The position numbers and the translations under genes are program-made. Below, piece by piece: positions 13,407 through 20,000 of a stretch of 20,000 bases of DNA. Every line of letters starts with the position of its first letter. Position 1 is the first letter of the stretch. Under the pieces are notes generated by a model. It searched no databases, was not told where the DNA came from, and saw only the letters and a list, made by a program, of their open reading frames with translations. Origin of the DNA: an uncultured virus (IMG/VR IMGVR_UViG_3300011114_001057) (taxonomy: Duplodnaviria; Heunggongvirae; Uroviricota; Caudoviricetes); the IMG/VR virus record IMGVR_UViG_3300011114_001057; one strand, written 5' to 3'.

Positions 13407-15548
13407 GTGCAGACTACTGTAAAACTATTAATCGATTCTCAGAATAACTCTTTGACCTTTAGTAAGAACTTTAGGATCTTCTCTACTGATGAGCCTATCA
13501 CAGGAATCATTGAATTTACTGAGTTTATCGAGGACCTGATATATGGTTCACCTAACATAATTGACCTAGCTAATCTAATTAGAAAAATACGATATTCTAG
13601 GAATAAGCTTGACTGGTCACTCTGGTATACTGTTGCTCCTGGAAATATTGGAGACTCAGCTAATATGATATTAGATTCAGCTGATCCTTTCTATTTTCAA
13701 GTAAGATACGAATACGATGATGGCACCACCGATCAATTACCTGATCTTATTCAAGTAAACGAAATAAAACTTAGGTTTAAATCTTCTCCTGGAACACTAG
13801 ATGTTTTTGCGCCTAAAGTAAAGTGCTCAAACGAGACCTATTCTTCAATAATTGCCAATCGTGATCCTAGTTTTAGACCATATGAGGTAGACAGTGCAAT
13901 TACCATGTTTAAAGACCTATCTTTCTTTACTAATCAGATATATGGTCACCAAGTAGTCTATTTTAGAACACTACCTGAATCAGATAGCGGCGATTATGTA
14001 TTTAAAGAGTGGACTCTATATAAAAACGTAGATCGTAAGTGTATTAAAGTAATGGTGCCCGGTAATACTTTTCCAGAAAACACTCCAAAATATACTGAGT
14101 TTGGCCTAGACTTTCAGGTGCCGTTTGAGATACACCTAGACCATAAGTATTTTCAATCTATTTTTGGATCCTGTTCAGAACCTAGGAAAAGAGACTTTTT
14201 GTATTTTCCACTACTCAATAGAATGTATGAAATCCAAGGATCATACTTAAGTCGTGGGTTTATGATGGAACCAGTCTTTTGGAAAGTTCAACTTAAGAAG
14301 TTCAGTCAAAATATTGATATGCTTCTTACTGACACAAGTAGAAGCTTCCTAGATAACGTAATCGTAAATGCTGACCAACTATTTAGTGATGAAGTAGAAA
14401 AAGATATTAAAGACAGCACAATGCCTGCACAATATCAAAAAATAACAACAACTTTTGATTCTTCAAGAAAAGCAATACATCCAGACGTGATACAGAGACC
14501 TTTGAAATATACCTTTAATTTTGCACCACTCATTGAAAATTATTATGACTTAGGCGGGGTTCCAGCAAACGAGATAACTGCTGAATTGTTAGCAACATCA
14601 CCTTTACTTTCTACTACTCAATCGCTAGAACAACTGCCTAATTTAGACAGCTCTTCTCTTCCTTCAACCGCCGTTATCATTGCCTATGAAGGCAGCCCTA
14701 TCTACACTACTTGGAGAAACAATGGATTACTAACAAACGACAAAAACGTTAAGGCTTCTAGTTTTAGATACTGTCGAGTTAGGGGACCGTTTGATAGTAT
14801 TTCAAACCACCAAGGAGAATCTGAAACTGGTAGATTTATCAGGATTGAGGCTTATCGAGACCTTAGTTTTAAAGATCCTAAAGATATTCTAACCGATATT
14901 GTATCTGGCAAGACCATTGTAAAATTTAAAGTAAGGGAGCCAGCTATCGTCTATTCTGCTACTCCTAAGTTTAACAACACAACTGATAGAAACTTAAGTT
15001 TTACCTGCCTATTCAATGTGCCATCAAGCGGTGGACCTATTAATTTTATCGATGGCTTCGATAGCGACAGTCAGTCTGGGATACAGATCACTGGTAACTT
15101 TACTAGATATATTAGCGCTGAGCCTGAAGGAGTATTGACCCTTAGTATAAAAGCCAATGCACAAGTAAAAAACTATTCTATTGCTAATTTTACAAGCGGT
15201 CAATGGCATGCACTAGTAGTCTCTATCTCTAATGAGTTTCTACAATGCGGAACCTATGTCTATAAAATAGTAGAGGATCCTAGCGACATCATAAATCATA
15301 GCGAGTTTGTGCCCATATTACAAAGTACCTCTTCTTTTTCTTTAACCCAGTTTGAAATAGACCAAAACTATATTTTACCTAACTCTAACTTGCTAATAAC
15401 TAATATAAGAGTCTTCAACACAATGTTAAAAGAAGAAGAGCACGATTTTATATTAAGCCAACAGTTCCTTAGAGATGAATCTATGCTTGTTTTAATCGAC
15501 AACTGTCGAGTACAGACTAATTTACCATATATCGTTAAAAATAGATAA
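13407..15548 (+). CDS. Neck/head-closure protein with a T4 gp14-like central domain, plus an N-terminal extension and a C-terminal LamG/ConA-like domain (713 aa)
   Basis: GTG start. The central region has the gp14-family pattern YGHQVVYF...FKE...FGLD...IHL..YF...EPRKRDFLYFPLLNRMYEI....F.....WKVQLKKF. The C-terminus has LamG-like GQWHALVVSIS and ITNIRVFNTML. It lies immediately upstream of a gp15-like gene, as in T4. Confidence 0.7.
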   Translation: MQTTVKLLIDSQNNSLTFSKNFRIFSTDEPITGIIEFTEFIEDLIYGSPNIIDLANLIRKIRYSRNKLDWSLWYTVAPGNIGDSANMILDSADPFYFQVRYEYDDGTTDQLPDLIQVNEIKLRFKSSPGTLDVFAPKVKCSNETYSSIIANRDPSFRPYEVDSAITMFKDLSFFTNQIYGHQVVYFRTLPESDSGDYVFKEWTLYKNVDRKCIKVMVPGNTFPENTPKYTEFGLDFQVPFEIHLDHKYFQSIFGSCSEPRKRDFLYFPLLNRMYEIQGSYLSRGFMMEPVFWKVQLKKFSQNIDMLLTDTSRSFLDNVIVNADQLFSDEVEKDIKDSTMPAQYQKITTTFDSSRKAIHPDVIQRPLKYTFNFAPLIENYYDLGGVPANEITAELLATSPLLSTTQSLEQLPNLDSSSLPSTAVIIAYEGSPIYTTWRNNGLLTNDKNVKASSFRYCRVRGPFDSISNHQGESETGRFIRIEAYRDLSFKDPKDILTDIVSGKTIVKFKVREPAIVYSATPKFNNTTDRNLSFTCLFNVPSSGGPINFIDGFDSDSQSGIQITGNFTRYISAEPEGVLTLSIKANAQVKNYSIANFTSGQWHALVVSISNEFLQCGTYVYKIVEDPSDIINHSEFVPILQSTSSFSLTQFEIDQNYILPNSNLLITNIRVFNTMLKEEEHDFILSQQFLRDESMLVLIDNCRVQTNLPYIVKNR

Positions 15549-15557
15549 CTAAGAATA

Positions 15558-16343
15558 ATGAAAAGATCAAACAACGAAAACATACGAAACAACAACTCAC
15601 AAGACGTCTTTTTAAGAAACGCTACTCTATCTCTATTGGATCTACTCAATAAGGAAATCATAATATATTTAAAAAGAGGAGATGAAGTTGAAGAACACGC
15701 TATTCCAATTTTTTACAACTTTGGAGGAGATGAAGGATTTATGAAAGACTTCTTCTTAGAGTTGCCGACTGACTGCTCTTATCCAAACTTTGCAGAGGGC
15801 AACTACGAACAGATGCCACGTGGAATAATAACACTAGATTCTTTTCAAATAAAAACAGCCGATCTTACTAACAAGTTTGTTAGGGGTAGCTTTAATCAGG
15901 AAACTCGCAATGAAAACAATCAAAAGGAGACCAAGGCTTACTCCTCAAGGTTATTTGTTCTTCCAATGAGTTTAACTTACTCAATGAAGATAGAGAGTGA
16001 TAATATCAATAAAACATTTAAGATAATTGAAAGGATTTTTGATTTTTACTATAAGAATCAGGTAAGATATTTTCAGTTTAGAGGGACCCGAATACCTATG
16101 CAGATAACCTTTCCAGAGACTGCACAGTTTCAAAAGAGTTACAGTTTTAGTTATAGTGATCAAAATACCGTAACTACTTCTCTTTCACTAGCCGTTGAGA
16201 CCTATTTTCCAAGCTTTGATGATCATTCTACCTTCTATAAAGGTAACAAAATAGACCAGTTTAACTTGCGACAGGGTCAAGCACAATCGGGTTCAACACT
16301 AGCTGATTCGTGGATAGACTCGGATTTTCCACCAAGCGAATAA
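15558..16343 (+). CDS. Tail sheath stabiliser / tail terminator, T4 gp15-like (261 aa)
   Basis: Size and motif order fit gp15: FLRNATLSLLDLLN, IPIFY, MPRGII, LPMSLTYSMKI, FKIIERIFDFY, LSLAVETY. It follows the gp14-like gene. Confidence 0.7.
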   Translation: MKRSNNENIRNNNSQDVFLRNATLSLLDLLNKEIIIYLKRGDEVEEHAIPIFYNFGGDEGFMKDFFLELPTDCSYPNFAEGNYEQMPRGIITLDSFQIKTADLTNKFVRGSFNQETRNENNQKETKAYSSRLFVLPMSLTYSMKIESDNINKTFKIIERIFDFYYKNQVRYFQFRGTRIPMQITFPETAQFQKSYSFSYSDQNTVTTSLSLAVETYFPSFDDHSTFYKGNKIDQFNLRQGQAQSGSTLADSWIDSDFPPSE

Positions 16344-16347
16344 ATAA
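16339..16347 (+). promoter_or_regulatory. Candidate late-promoter-like element AATAAATAA heading the small-gene cassette
   Basis: Overlaps the gp15-like stop codon and ends 5 nt before the ATG at 16353. Same core as the 13334 and 13382 elements. Confidence 0.3.
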
Positions 16348-16352
16348 AGTAT

Positions 16353-16928
16353 ATGGAGACAAGACTCAAGACCTTTAATCAATATCTAGTAGAGAATCAA
16401 ATCTTTTCTGATGCCTTAAGATATCACATGGTAAACGGTTTCTCAGTGTTAGAATCAATCTATAGGCCAGGTAGTCAAGCCCATCTGGATCTTCTATGTG
16501 AGGCTAGGTGTGCGTTTAATCTAGGTAAAATAAAGTTTAATGGAATCGATCATACGCTTTTAGCTGAGACCGATATTGGCAATACTGGCACTTATCAAAA
16601 TAAGACAGTTGTTTTAGACATGCCGCTTGAGGTTTTAGAATTGAATGAGGCAAAGTCTCCTAAACTAAACTATCCTATGCGAGGAGGAGCCAAAAAGTAC
16701 CATGTGTATGTTAAGAATCCTCAAACTGGAAATATTAAAAAGATTTCTTTTGGAGATGTACACGGCGGATTAACTGCAAAAGTTAGTAATCCTAAAGCCA
16801 GAAAATCATTTGCAGCTCGACATAATTGTGCTGAAAAGAAGGACAGAACTAAAGCAGGCTACTGGGCTTGCCGAATTAATCGATATGCTCACTTATGGGG
16901 CGGTAAAACTTATCCTGGATTCTGGTAA
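16353..16928 (+). CDS. Two-domain putative internal head protein with a basic C-terminal domain (SFxARHNC...YWxC)
   Basis: The N-terminus METRLKTFNQYLVE resembles a capsid targeting sequence. An LNE at aa 97-99 precedes a K/R-rich domain (KKYHVYVKNP..GNIKKISFGD...RKSFAARHNC...AGYWAC), which I recognise as a recurrent viral domain of unknown function. Confidence 0.65.
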   Translation: METRLKTFNQYLVENQIFSDALRYHMVNGFSVLESIYRPGSQAHLDLLCEARCAFNLGKIKFNGIDHTLLAETDIGNTGTYQNKTVVLDMPLEVLELNEAKSPKLNYPMRGGAKKYHVYVKNPQTGNIKKISFGDVHGGLTAKVSNPKARKSFAARHNCAEKKDRTKAGYWACRINRYAHLWGGKTYPGFW

Positions 16929-16946
16929 TACTTAAAAAATAATAAT

Positions 16947-17564
16947 ATGAAACATATATTAACATATCATAAGCTATTTGAGAATGAGAATATGGAACAA
17001 TATACTCCATCTACTAAAACTATCATCACTGGCGGAGAAATTATACTCGCTAAAGATAAAAATGCTCCATTACTTATAGTGTATGGTGGCATACCAGTTA
17101 AAGGTGTAACTAGCGGTGTCTATATGTGGAATTATGTAGATAAATTAAAGGAAAAATACCACATATTTGTTGCATCAAGTCATAAAGTAAACGGGCCTGA
17201 TACTTATGAGACTGTGCTCACTTACCTAAAAAAATATGGAATAACACCTTCAAAAAAAGTGCTTTATCTTTTTTCAGGCGGGTATTCTCCAGGAATGAAA
17301 TTATTAGACACAAAAGCGGCTGATTTTTCAAAAGTATTATTAGTAGATATTTGGATGAAGGGTAAAACTATCTCTGATTTCTACATTAAATTTACTAATA
17401 ATAATAAATCAAAAGTTGAATACTATTATACTAGTTTTGGTGCAAACAACGACTCAGCTCGTGATGCTATTGCTAAGAGCGCAAGCGTTGTAAACACAAA
17501 AAGTAATCATATGGACACTAACTTATTAGCAGTCGACTCACTAATTAAAATGTATAACATATGA
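16947..17564 (+). CDS. Putative minimal alpha/beta-hydrolase-fold protein with a capsid-targeting-like N-terminus (205 aa)
   Basis: PLLIVYGG (oxyanion-strand-like), LYLFSGGY (nucleophile-elbow-like Ser), VLLVDIW (acid) and SNHM (His near the C-terminus) occur in canonical order. The N-terminus is MKHILTYHKLFE. Confidence 0.55.
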   Translation: MKHILTYHKLFENENMEQYTPSTKTIITGGEIILAKDKNAPLLIVYGGIPVKGVTSGVYMWNYVDKLKEKYHIFVASSHKVNGPDTYETVLTYLKKYGITPSKKVLYLFSGGYSPGMKLLDTKAADFSKVLLVDIWMKGKTISDFYIKFTNNNKSKVEYYYTSFGANNDSARDAIAKSASVVNTKSNHMDTNLLAVDSLIKMYNI

Positions 17565-17827
17565 ATGATTTACCTTTTACTGAGATCCAATTATCAAACG
17601 ACACATATATTCGTGAGTTTGTACAGTCTTCTGAAGCTGATGAGTTTAGGTGGCATCGAGACTATGAAGATCGCTTAATCGTTTCAATAAATAAAACTGA
17701 TTGGTTAATTCAACTTGAAAATAAGCTACCGCAAGAATTAAATTCAAAGGTATTAATAGAAAAAGGAGAATGGCACAGGTTGATAAAAGGAACCGGTAAA
17801 TTAAAATTAAAAATAGTTAAGTACTAA
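17561..17827 (+). CDS. Small cupin-fold protein (88 aa)
   Basis: Two His motifs, WHRDYEDR and IEKGEWHRLIKG, with cupin-like spacing. ATGA overlap with the upstream gene and TAATG overlap with the downstream gene. Confidence 0.65.
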   Translation: MNDLPFTEIQLSNDTYIREFVQSSEADEFRWHRDYEDRLIVSINKTDWLIQLENKLPQELNSKVLIEKGEWHRLIKGTGKLKLKIVKY

Positions 17828-18522
17828 TGAAGAATTTATTAAATTACAAACAGTACCTAATACTTGAAAAGGGTTCAGAGTCATGTCCAGTAGCAACTCA
17901 AAATCTAGAGGTAAACACTAGAAACCGCAACAAAGCAATAGAGGCAGACTACATTAAATATGGGCCACTAAACCTTACTGACGAGAAATATTGGGAAGAG
18001 TATGCTAAAAAATGGAATACTGAGCCAGAAGTTGCAAAGCAATCTAATTGTGGAAATTGTGTAGCATTTGATATTTCTCCAAGAATGCAAGAGTGTATGC
18101 CTGGAGAAGTTAGCGATCCTGATGGAAGACTTGGTTACTGTTGGATGCATCACTTTAAATGTCACTCTGCTCGTACTTGTTATACTTGGGCGGCAGGCGG
18201 ACCTATTGAAGAAGATTCAGTTTCAGCCGATTGGCAAAGTAAAAATGGTGGAGAAGTTAATGAAAAAAGAAAAACTAAAAACTCTCCAAGCTGGAAAGAT
18301 TCAGATGCACCAGATGCTAATGGAAAATTTAAAGAACTTGGAATAAAAGCACTTGCCGCTTGGCTGATCCGAACTAGAGGCGGAGACATGCGTAAGATTA
18401 CTGGAAGCCTAAACCAGCAAATAGTATTTAATCGAAACGATAATCCGGCATACGCTAAGAAGATGGAAAGTGTTAGAGCAGAAGTAAAAAGACAGCTTGG
18501 TAAAAAAAATAAAAAACAATGA
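17827..18522 (+). CDS. Two-domain putative internal head protein: Cys-rich HiPIP-like metal-binding domain plus a basic helical domain (231 aa)
   Basis: The N-terminus is MKNLLNYKQYLILE, followed by CGNC...C...GYCWMHHFKCHSARTCYTW. An internal VNE precedes a K/R-rich C-terminal domain. Confidence 0.6.
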   Translation: MKNLLNYKQYLILEKGSESCPVATQNLEVNTRNRNKAIEADYIKYGPLNLTDEKYWEEYAKKWNTEPEVAKQSNCGNCVAFDISPRMQECMPGEVSDPDGRLGYCWMHHFKCHSARTCYTWAAGGPIEEDSVSADWQSKNGGEVNEKRKTKNSPSWKDSDAPDANGKFKELGIKALAAWLIRTRGGDMRKITGSLNQQIVFNRNDNPAYAKKMESVRAEVKRQLGKKNKKQ

Positions 18523-18980
18523 TGCTTACCTTTAATCAATACTGCCTGCTTGAGAGCAAGAAACAAAAGGCTAATCCCAAAAACTATAAAGCTCCTGAAG
18601 GAAGTGCTAGAGATAAGAAACTAGATAAGGCAAAAGAACTAATTAAATCTGGCAATAAAGACGAGGCATATCGACTTAGGGATGAGATGGAGAAGGCTGA
18701 ACGTGAAAAAGCTGACTTTAAAAATACTCCACGTAAGGACTCTAAAGTCAATGAAGCTAAATCTCGCACGTTAAGTAAAGAGACGCTGGCTAAGATTAGA
18801 AAGGTTGCAACTAAGAAAGGATATTCGTTTGCTGACCTAAAGCGTGAATATATCAAAGGCTTAGGTGCATTCTATTCTTCAGGCTCCAGACCAGGAATGA
18901 CTTCTCATCAGTGGGCAATGGCTAGAGTAAACTCAGCAGGTCCAAGTAAATCTTGGGCAAATGTTAAAAAAGTAAAATAA
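18519..18980 (+). CDS. Two-domain basic putative internal head protein with a DUF5824-like C-terminal domain (153 aa)
   Basis: The N-terminus is MMLTFNQYCLLE, with an internal VNE at aa 77-79. The C-terminal LKREYIKGLGAFYSSGSRPGMTSHQWAMARVNS matches the G..A....G.RPG....QW..ARV.S viral motif that I recall as DUF5824. ATGA overlap with the upstream gene. Confidence 0.6.
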   Translation: MMLTFNQYCLLESKKQKANPKNYKAPEGSARDKKLDKAKELIKSGNKDEAYRLRDEMEKAEREKADFKNTPRKDSKVNEAKSRTLSKETLAKIRKVATKKGYSFADLKREYIKGLGAFYSSGSRPGMTSHQWAMARVNSAGPSKSWANVKKVK

Positions 18981-18983
18981 AAT

Positions 18984-19532
18984 ATGCTACTTAACGTAAG
19001 ACAAAATGGATTTCTATTTTCGTTTCCGCCAGATTTTTTTGCACCTGAAATAAAAGAAAAATATAAACCTTATTTTCAAAGTCTAATCTTACCGTATGAT
19101 ACAATTGAAGACTTTATGTCCTCAACCATACAATCAATCAATTGGCCAGGCTGGACTATGCAGACCGTTCCTCAGACTCGTATATTAGGTAAGCAGCAAG
19201 AATACAAAAGCTCAAAACAGGTAATAGACCAGTTTGTTAGAGAATTTACAATAACCTTTAAGATGACTGACGCTTATCTAAACTATTTTATCTTTTTAGA
19301 AAACGGTTTAAAATACCTTGATTTTCAGAATAAAGCTAGAACGTTTTCACCGATGCGACTTTCTTTACTAGATAATGAAGGCTATTTAGTATCTTCAATA
19401 ATCTACAAGGAACCTATCCTAGTCTCACAAGACGGTTTTAATCTTTCGTACAGCTCGTCTACTCCTGATTTTAAGACCTTTACTGCAAAGTTTTCATACT
19501 TTACTTTTGATATTGAATTAGATTTTAATTAG
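18984..19532 (+). CDS. Tail-tube-fold protein, T4 gp3-like tail completion/tube terminator (182 aa)
   Basis: The pattern IQSINWPG...FTITFKMTDAYLNY...LSLLDNEG...IIYKEP..S...LSY....FTAKFSYFTFDI and the size are typical of the gp3/gp19 tube fold. Confidence 0.6.
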   Translation: MLLNVRQNGFLFSFPPDFFAPEIKEKYKPYFQSLILPYDTIEDFMSSTIQSINWPGWTMQTVPQTRILGKQQEYKSSKQVIDQFVREFTITFKMTDAYLNYFIFLENGLKYLDFQNKARTFSPMRLSLLDNEGYLVSSIIYKEPILVSQDGFNLSYSSSTPDFKTFTAKFSYFTFDIELDFN

Positions 19533-19545
19533 TAGATATAATAAC

Positions 19546-20000
19546 TTATATAGATCTAAAGTAATTTATGAATTTAGTTATATCGTCTGACCACATCAAC
19601 ATAGCATTATCCCTTATCTTCTGTTCATCCCAATCCCACCAAGCAATACTTTGTAGACTTTCTATCTGATCATCAGTAAATCTTTGCTTAACTTGTTTAG
19701 CGGGGTTTCCAGCAACTATTGTAAAAGGCAACACATCTTTTGTCACTACTGAACCTGCAGCAACAATAGACCCGTTACATATTCTAACGCCAGACATTAT
19801 AGTTGAATTAGCACCAATCCAAACATCATTCTCAATTACGATATCCCCTTTACATGTAGGGTGACCCATTGCCATATGCATATCAGCAATCTCACCAGTA
19901 ACCGGCCCTAAGAGCTGAGAAGAAGTTGTTATCCAATCTGGTCGATGGTTAGCATGTAGGAAGAAATTACAATCTCTACCTATTGAATTATATTTACCTA
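19546..20000 (-). CDS. CatB/Vat-related hexapeptide-repeat O-acetyltransferase (5'-truncated by the window)
   Basis: The frame stays open to the window end: GKYNSIGRDCNFFLHANHRPDWITTSSQL...KGDIVIENDVWIGANSTIMSGVRICNGSIVAAGSVVTKDVLPFTIVAGNPAKQVKQRF...WWDW. This has the left-handed beta-helix repeats, the NH catalytic His and the C-terminal WWDW of xenobiotic acyltransferases. The ATG at 19881 is therefore internal. Confidence 0.9.
   Translation of the reverse strand, partial: GKYNSIGRDCNFFLHANHRPDWITTSSQLLGPVTGEIADMHMAMGHPTCKGDIVIENDVWIGANSTIMSGVRICNGSIVAAGSVVTKDVLPFTIVAGNPAKQVKQRFTDDQIESLQSIAWWDWDEQKIRDNAMLMWSDDITKFINYFRSI

Follow-up and report, generated by a model that had tools for sequence, protein, structure and literature searches.

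A cassette of dissimilar small proteins with shared T4-like leaders in an uncultured phage: a candidate locus for head cargo

Introduction

The principle by which phage T4 marks its cargo with a leader has been known for decades, and polymorphic internal-protein loci were reportedly the subject of older work by Repoila, Comeau and Krisch. Here, we analyze a cassette of five small genes, P1 to P5 (positions 16353 to 18980), in a 20,000-nucleotide stretch of DNA from an uncultured virus of the class Caudoviricetes (IMG/VR record IMGVR_UViG_3300011114_001057); this whole stretch is referred to as the window. Four of the five encoded proteins begin with leaders that resemble the T4 signal, which makes them candidates for proteins carried in the phage head.

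In T4, the capsid-targeting sequence (CTS) consists of the first 10 residues of IPIII, with residues 4 and 7 serving targeting and residues 8 and 10 processing, and gp21 cuts after L/I-X-E (PMC9026906). T4 propeptides are given as 10-20 residues long (PMC5694885). Among T-even phages, the internal proteins have been described as highly diverse, only the CTS being conserved (PMC3012670). Our literature search, with subscription journals outside its coverage, found such leaders described only for T4 and for the giant phiKZ-type phages, and returned no description of them in marine or Bacteroidota-type T4 relatives.

The leaders of the cassette

Four leaders had been proposed in a first-pass annotation of the window. 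Translation of the plus strand reproduces them exactly, as METRLKTFNQYLVE in P1 (16353-16394), MKHILTYHKLFE in P2 (16947-16982), MKNLLNYKQYLILE in P4 (17827-17868) and MMLTFNQYCLLE in P5 (18519-18554), each comprising 12-14 residues up to a Glu. All four close with [L/I]-x-E, namely LVE, LFE, ILE and LLE, respectively. The annotation had further described the payloads as otherwise dissimilar and the flanking genes as free of leaders, and both descriptions hold. An all-versus-all BLASTP of the five proteins gave no pair with E<0.4, and the top local matches were the leaders themselves, between residues 7-16 of P1 and 4-14 of P5 (64% identity) and between residues 4-14 of P4 and 2-12 of P5 (45%). 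The gp15-like, neck-like and tube-like neighbors carry no such leader, and neither does P3.

The proposed likeness to the T4 CTS is borne out by the spacing of the leaders and by their gp21-type ending. KTFNQYLVE in P1 shares the spacing aromatic-x2-aromatic-[LI]-x-E with the T4 CTS, MKTYQEFIAE. Equivalents of CTS residues 4 and 7 are matched exactly in P1 and with a one-residue insertion in P4 and P5, and P2, which has the most divergent of the four leaders, lacks the second aromatic residue. Based on the mutational data for the CTS, we defined a T4-derived pattern (aromatic-x2-aromatic/Leu-(x)-[LIVM]-x-E within the first 20 residues), which matched three of the 14 open reading frame (ORF) N-termini in the window, all of them from cassette genes, with P2 failing. 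A MAFFT alignment of 56 distinct leader sequences of the four leader families from related loci was gapless and revealed the core [ST/NK]-[FY]-x-Q-[FYW]; variants of the P5 leader among the relatives include MILTFEQYCILE, FNQWLNE and FNQWLNxINE. In the AlphaFold2 model of P2, the first 20 residues have low confidence and the domain is confident; as modeled, the P2 leader is predicted to lie outside the fold.

Retention of the leaders across related loci

To place the cassette among its relatives, we fetched 73 related loci from IMG/VR via their gp15-like protein (56-100% identity), across which the leaders persist, and based the cassette statistics on the 45 loci with both borders. Among these 45, the cassette is hypervariable, comprising 0-6 genes per locus and 144 ORFs in total, with fusions, deletions and domain swaps. 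Single-linkage clustering merged P3, P4 and P5 through fusion ORFs and gave no clean count of payload families. The nearest relative in the comparison, a 36-kb fragment (G001), is 96-98% identical over the cassette region, and a nucleotide search of a phage collection returned only a 190-base, 69% match in Flavobacterium phage immuto.

A separation of leader and payload was found in P4. Positions 17864 to 18249 (plus strand) are absent from G001, where bases 2365-2750 of a query spanning 15500-19600 remained unmatched between flanks that are 96-98% identical. This corresponds to an in-frame loss of the Cys domain just after the leader. The remaining P4 of 101 aa comprises the leader, directly followed by the C-terminal domain (GEVNEKRK...), and the same 101-aa form occurs in two other loci. 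Further deletion forms measure 98 aa (L026, with a different junction) and 120 aa (L045). Throughout these forms of 98-120 aa, the leader is intact to its Glu and the Cys domain is lost wholly or partly, with varying end points. The P2-type leader, in turn, heads four payload clusters that the P2 profile does not detect. The earlier description of a modular locus of leader and payload thus agrees with the comparison, in which only the leaders are shared and payloads are deleted or swapped under a leader that is kept. This pattern argues that the leader is a separate functional module.

Among the 31 distinct N-termini of P1 orthologues, all contain [LIVM]-x-E within residues 6-26. We also compared each leader with the next stretch of equal length, using pairwise difference counts, which are non-independent. 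The ratio of synonymous to nonsynonymous differences was 149:88 in the P4 leader vs 113:295 in the next 14 codons, 1439:1923 vs 739:4619 for P1, and 183:209 vs 124:219 for P5. These counts indicate that the leaders are conserved at the protein level and point to selection on the amino-acid sequence.

Leaders and head genes in a 176-kb relative

The whole-genome leader test was run on G002, a 176-kb relative (~70% complete, 74% gp15 identity) that carries one of the 73 loci, with a leader profile trained only on cassette leaders from loci other than G002 and a threshold of at least 8 bits. The profile retrieved 8 of 206 non-cassette N-termini, compared with 4 hits in 2073 internal tiles, 4 in 761 internal-Met windows and 1 in 4120 shuffles. 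An N-terminal motif check had been envisaged by the first-pass annotation for the parent genome; in G002, the profile thus places this leader type outside the cassette as well. The T4-derived pattern was found in 15 of 212 N-termini vs 23 of 2328 internal 20-residue windows. By eye, ~25-30 of the 212 ORFs have leader-style starts, including Phage_lysozyme2, PG_binding_1 and NUDIX proteins. A first, loose regular expression was dropped in favor of the profile and the T4-derived pattern, because it picked up a DNA ligase with an N-terminal helix to which the profile gives a low score.

Pfam matches in G002 include the head genes Portal_T4, Gp23 capsid protein and Peptidase_S77. The search for a gp21-like protease, which had been suggested alongside the leaders, succeeded in relatives but not in the 36-kb G001 fragment, where S77 is absent. 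Peptidase_S77 is encoded in three of five long related contigs (G002, G003 and G005), the other two being 41-51% complete, and in all three cultured relatives (immuto, Melnitz and HTVC008M). Candidate cleavage sites are frequent in the protease ORF of G002 itself (55503-57485, 612-663 aa), with 20 [LI]xE sites in 612 aa (Poisson p=5e-4), and the G002 capsid protein has three [LI]xE sites within residues 1-54 and none in residues 55-369.

Some further features of G002 were noted in passing. The start of the protease ORF is probably not ATG, and many [LI]xE sites lie in its long C-terminal extension, possibly a fused scaffold. The protein with the densest [LI]xE sites (ORF 159628-161220; 26 sites in 530 aa, p=7e-8) is a scaffold candidate. 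The capsid protein has its nearest counterparts in Lak megaphages, in a 462-kb uncultured phage, and in phages of Flavobacterium, Chryseobacterium and Sphingomonas (PAU). Several ORFs have lipoprotein-like signal peptides, of a kind known from Bacteroidota; the host assignment is a guess.

Leader-like motifs also occur within or at the end of longer ORFs. In-frame fusion ORFs with a complete internal leader were seen in four loci (L035 8624-9244, L046 8620-9243, L047 8624-9241 and L051 4693-5328); in one example, P5, leader included, follows an MDSINETIEK.. module from residue 54 on. In G002, ORF 20746-21516 contains an internal ..MSFNQFVNE.. at residue 194, and ORF 153031-153498 ends in ..LSFSQFINS. 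Such fusion ORFs resemble polyproteins joined at protease-type sites. In distant relatives (L070 2289-3449, L071-L082), we identified by eye a 386-450-aa cassette protein resembling nucleotidyltransferases of the CCA-adding/poly(A) polymerase type, with a GGAVRD motif; it has no N-terminal leader and carries a C-terminal leader-like motif, ..FKYIKEFVNYE. Also by eye, one payload under a P2-type leader (L029 8375-8905, L062 6058-6603) contains a stretch resembling the Cyanophycin_syn N-terminal domain, WLGHI.EHIALELQTLAG, and a paralogue in G002 (25682-26191) matches Pfam PF18921 with E=4.6e-18.

A leader-bearing protein family detected in virions

Indirect virion evidence comes from a cyanophage family. 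A putative cytidylyltransferase, T4-GC190, was detected in purified virions of S-SM1 (Sullivan et al. 2010, PMC3037559), and the supplement of that study lists T4-GC190 with 'proteomic data YES' and gives a Syn9 orthologue that starts with MKKFSAFLSE (PMC3037559). The S-RIM8 orthologue starts with MKKFSAFLTE. The homologue in Melnitz is ordered as leader, cytidylyltransferase, DUF5824 and a P1-like module, which begins just after S-L-I-E, and that of HTVC008M combines a leader-bearing cytidylyltransferase with DUF5824. Because T4-GC190 was found in S-SM1 virions and its Melnitz and HTVC008M homologues share modules with the cassette, at least one cultured phage has, as components of its virion, proteins with the same modules and a leader of the same kind. 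Judged by a term search of its main text, PMC3037559 contains no discussion of a leader or of processing at the N-terminus.

Leaders and payloads in other lineages

The payload domains of P1 and P5 are also found in phages of SAR11 and roseobacters, namely podoviruses and a siphovirus, where none of four homologues (Kolga gp56, HTVC106P gp30, CRP-6 gp55 and HTVC111P gp59) has a leader. A payload homologue of the Kyanoviridae phage C48C1 starts with MKKFKQYIDE, and in immuto, Melnitz and HTVC008M leader-like starts were found on neighboring genes.

For the Cys domain of P4, we fetched 80 loci and applied a neighbor test to 26 non-redundant ones. Inspection of 18 full-length homologues by eye revealed a hydrophobic-x-E leader just before the Cys domain in 14, the leader sequences being quite different from each other. 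Neighboring genes in the 80 loci often have a leader in common; in one locus (L127), ~10 consecutive genes start with MKLL.ENW..Y.NE. Such a shared local dialect, with the same-locus neighbor more similar than 95% of other-locus draws, was detected in 8 of the 26 loci at p<=0.05 vs ~1.3 expected. The test is crude and conservative, as it uses ungapped BLOSUM scores and related dialects in the null raise several p-values; one locus (L172) matched on its payload.

Payload domains

The first-pass annotation had foreseen a hydrolase, a metal-binding domain and basic domains as payloads. After the leader, P1, P2, P4 and P5 are indeed basic, with pI values of 9.0-10.2, the highest being that of P5 (10.2). 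P1 (16353..16928, plus strand, 191 aa) consists of the leader, an acidic N-domain (pI 5.2 for aa 15-96) and a basic C-domain (pI 10.3 for aa 97-191) of the phrog_7595 type (PHROG 7595, E=3.6e-11, aa 97-174), and shares 45% identity (E=3e-36) with the C-terminal module of Melnitz gp18. P5 (18519..18980, plus strand, 153 aa) follows its leader with a very basic DUF5824 protein (Pfam PF19141, aa 55-139, E=5.1e-9; 36.8 bits, the cut-off being 25). P5 and the C-domains of P1 and P4 are likely to be DNA-associated basic domains.

P2 (16947..17564, plus strand, 205 aa) comprises the leader, a short linker and a predicted alpha/beta-hydrolase domain, in agreement with the hydrolase that had been proposed. 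Its AlphaFold2 model (mean pLDDT 89.3) matched alpha/beta-hydrolases (esterases, hydrolases) in Foldseek, with E down to 9e-7, probability 1.0 and TMq of 0.50-0.57, and the putative triad S110, D134 and H188 is invariant in 36 aligned homologues, in the nucleophile-acid-His order that fits this fold. No Pfam family matched P2. In some homologues the domain is fused to PG_binding_1, and JGI calls these peptidoglycan hydrolase-like. P2 is likely a serine hydrolase, and because of these fusions to peptidoglycan-binding domains it perhaps acts on the cell wall. The same relatives are relevant to the anti-defense role that had been raised for the cargo: nothing points to such a role, which would be pure analogy with T4 IPI* (PMC3012670), and the hydrolase relatives hint at the cell wall instead.

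P4 (17827..18522, plus strand, 231 aa) carries a 7-Cys domain (aa ~20-127) and a basic helical C-domain (aa ~142-231) behind its leader and has 2129 homologues at E<=1e-3. The two domains are separate leader-bearing genes in L142 and occur in reversed order in P0030. Seven cysteines (C20, C75, C78, C90, C105, C112 and C118) are invariant in 39 aligned sequences. The proposed metal-binding domain is plausible, yet neither Pfam nor the PDB yielded a relative: none of the 39 members matched Pfam, a sequence profile search of the PDB gave nothing significant, and Foldseek returned no match at E<=0.001 for a model with pLDDT 69.7. A VIA-align wide search with this model matched only the C-terminal helical part (Z<=6.5, within the range of unrelated helical proteins), and scores in the ESM Atlas (0.77-0.82) were below the lead threshold. 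Six phage records label such proteins as HiPIP; this label is not adopted here, as 0 of 39 members match a HiPIP Pfam model at E<=1 and none was found in PDB sequences. The Cys-rich domain is possibly metal-binding.

P3 (17561..17827, plus strand, 88 aa) is a small conserved protein with a WHRD..DR motif and a near-neutral pI of 6.1, for which no Pfam or PHROG match and no fold were found. Most of the related cassettes contain it (45 matching ORFs), and it adjoins the P1 homologue in immuto and Melnitz, and occurs in other cargo clusters of several lineages. P3-type proteins of 83-92 aa, leaderless and with the motif ..IR.F....D..EL.WHRD..DR.., were seen, for example, at L006 5527-5784, L007 5471-5740 and L120 10964-11242. 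P3 may be a cargo partner or chaperone.

Position of the cassette in the window

Based on ORFs, Pfam and PHROG, the window is part of the plus-strand structural module of a T4-related myophage. Very large structural ORFs precede a neck or head-completion-like gene (13407..15548, 713 aa), whose matches are weak (T4_neck-protein, E=0.0077, 16 bits against a cut-off of 25; PHROG 679 'head closure Hc2', E=7e-5). The next gene (15558..16343) encodes a gp15-like tail sheath stabilizer or tail completion protein (PF16724, T4-gp15_tss, E=2.2e-6, 27.5 bits against a cut-off of 25) and forms the left border of the cassette. A tail-tube-fold gene (gp19/gp3-like; 18984..19532, 182 aa) forms the right border and directly follows the cassette in the 45 related loci. 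The cassette had been placed between gp15- and gp3-like genes: the gp15 assignment stands, whereas the right-hand protein has no Pfam match and only a PHROG 45 'tail tube' match (E=3.3e-4), which does not separate gp3 from gp19. The five cassette genes overlap or are separated by gaps of 0-18 bases and, because of this spacing, are probably co-transcribed with their structural neighbors.

Downstream lies an opposite-strand block (19546-19998, minus strand) encoding a hexapeptide-repeat transferase (Pfam Hexapep, E=1.1e-10), of the kind concerned with sugar or surface modification. Beyond this point, in G001 (L005 9978-15051), the block continues with ORFs that by eye resemble a methyltransferase (190 aa) and a multi-domain glycosyltransferase (1309 aa).

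Interpretation

We consider it probable, at roughly 0.6, that the leaders are T4-style capsid-targeting propeptides cleaved by the head protease and that the cassette encodes head cargo. In such a scheme, the short amphipathic N-terminal peptide would bind the scaffold or core of the assembling prohead, and the protein would become enclosed. The Peptidase_S77 (gp21-type) prohead protease would then cut behind the Glu that closes the terminal [L/I]-x-E, and the mature, mostly basic protein would stay with the packaged DNA and probably exit with it at infection. Core binding, cleavage, residence in the head and injection are all steps that we infer.

Several observations weigh against this reading. 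The case for this phage and its near relatives is built on sequence, with S77 known from relatives, and the gene starts in the relatives are those of a first-ATG ORF caller. The cassette is placed among tail rather than head genes. Only 23 of the 31 P1 N-termini have x-x-E ending at residues 11-16, the rest using a later [IL]-S-E, and 4 of the 18 Cys-domain homologues have no hydrophobic-x-E leader. None of the eight profile hits in G002 has a replication or metabolic Pfam domain, which, with ~40 such proteins among 206, is indistinguishable from chance, and a looser pattern also matches thymidylate synthase and a NUDIX protein in that genome. Finally, in the 87.6-kb contig G007 (96% complete according to CheckV; locus L160), a MSWEDVLK-type tag that does not end in Glu is present on at least eight small genes, including the Cys-domain gene, and no S77 or Gp23-type match was found in this contig. 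Tags shared between N-termini are therefore not limited to phages with T4-type heads, and some other machinery must read the G007 tag, if any does.

Alternatively, the leader could be an N-terminal amphipathic helix of a general type that serves another purpose, for instance self-association, docking to another phage or host structure, regulated turnover or an efficient translation start, and would then be no protease-removed propeptide for head targeting. The G007 tag speaks for this alternative, as do the leader-like N-terminus of the NUDIX protein, the loose match to thymidylate synthase and the model of P4, in which the leader is folded as a helix (residues 7-19). On the other hand, all four leaders end in [LI]-x-E, all 31 P1 orthologues keep [LIVM]-x-E within residues 6-26, and the spacing fits that of the T4 CTS. 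A signal at the mRNA level is disfavored because the leaders are conserved at the protein level, with many synonymous changes. The podovirus and siphovirus homologues without leaders and the virion proteomic evidence for the leader-bearing cytidylyltransferase family also speak against it, and we regard it as rather unlikely, though the best placed of the alternatives.

The shared N-termini could instead be leftovers of recombination at common 5' gene ends, descending as linkers with no peptide function. Short conserved elements are described as driving modular shuffling in the hyperplastic regions of T4-like phages (PMC4122927), the cassette is itself hypervariable, and the P1 and P5 leaders have a 14-base identical stretch in common. 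Yet the leaders differ at many synonymous sites with their amino acids kept, the leader type heads genes scattered over the 176 kb of G002, and different lineages put different hydrophobic-x-E leaders on the same payload, which is unexpected of a passive linker. We therefore give this explanation about half the weight of a general helix.

A role of the tagged proteins in the neck or tail, as components of the tail lumen or head-tail connector whose leader serves tail or neck assembly, would suit the one-strand order of neck-like gene, gp15-like gene, cassette and tube-like gene with gaps of 0-18 bases, as well as the leader-like N-terminus of a relative's Phage_lysozyme2 ('phage tail lysozyme') protein. 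Against it, leaders in G002 are found on genes far from the tail genes and the motif fits a head protease site. Moreover, L053, L054 and L075 have no cassette gene between the gp15-like and tube-like genes, and the cassette proteins are for this reason dispensable for tail assembly. We regard such a role as very unlikely.

Beyond the window, capsid-targeting propeptides of this kind might form a lineage-specific address code across much of the T4-related phages, its dialect matched to the scaffold, by which any gene acquiring the leader would yield injected cargo. We advance this broader proposal tentatively and hold it somewhat less likely to be true than false; its range would include large phages with probable Bacteroidota hosts. 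If true, roughly one gene in ten of such a phage would code for a protein delivered along with the DNA, and the injected cargo would include common but unexplained domains of marine phages, namely the 7-Cys domain (>2000 proteins), DUF5824 and phrog_7595, as well as an alpha/beta-hydrolase with relatives among peptidoglycan-binding enzymes. The head-carried, injected proteome of uncultured T4-related phages could then be read from their genomes alone, and several very common phage domains of unknown function would obtain a first functional context, as virion cargo. The gain lies in breadth and annotation, the mechanism being already known from T4.

Comparison with known systems

In phiKZ, 201phi2-1 and SPN3US, N-terminal propeptides of head proteins are cut after Glu by gp21-related proteases, as would be the case for the cassette, and are thought to target the prohead, in large virions with many packaged proteins (PMC9026906, PMC5694885). 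Unlike in the cassette, their motif is S/A-X-E and not L/I-X-E, the propeptides are mostly longer than 100 residues, and these phages belong to another capsid lineage and possess virion RNA polymerases.

T4-GC190 shares a CTS-like leader with the cassette, its homologues contain DUF5824 and, in Melnitz, also a P1-like module. It differs in being a single multi-domain enzyme, whereas the window has no cytidylyltransferase domain.

The closest known system, the T4 set of IPI, IPII, IPIII and Alt together with gp21, likewise combines a short common propeptide with unrelated, basic payloads. In both systems, two hydrophobic or aromatic positions are spaced three residues apart ahead of [L/I]-x-Glu, both have a hypervariable locus, and the S77 protease and gp23-type capsid of T4 are found here in relatives. 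In contrast to T4, the leader of the cassette has 12-14 residues and its own consensus, [ST][FY]xQ[FYW]..[LI]xE, the payloads are dissimilar to the T4 internal proteins, and the cassette, known from sequence alone, lies between tail genes. The tag is also borne by many more genes in G002, eight by profile and ~25-30 of 212 by eye, and among the cassette payloads are an enzyme fold and domains widely distributed among marine phages.

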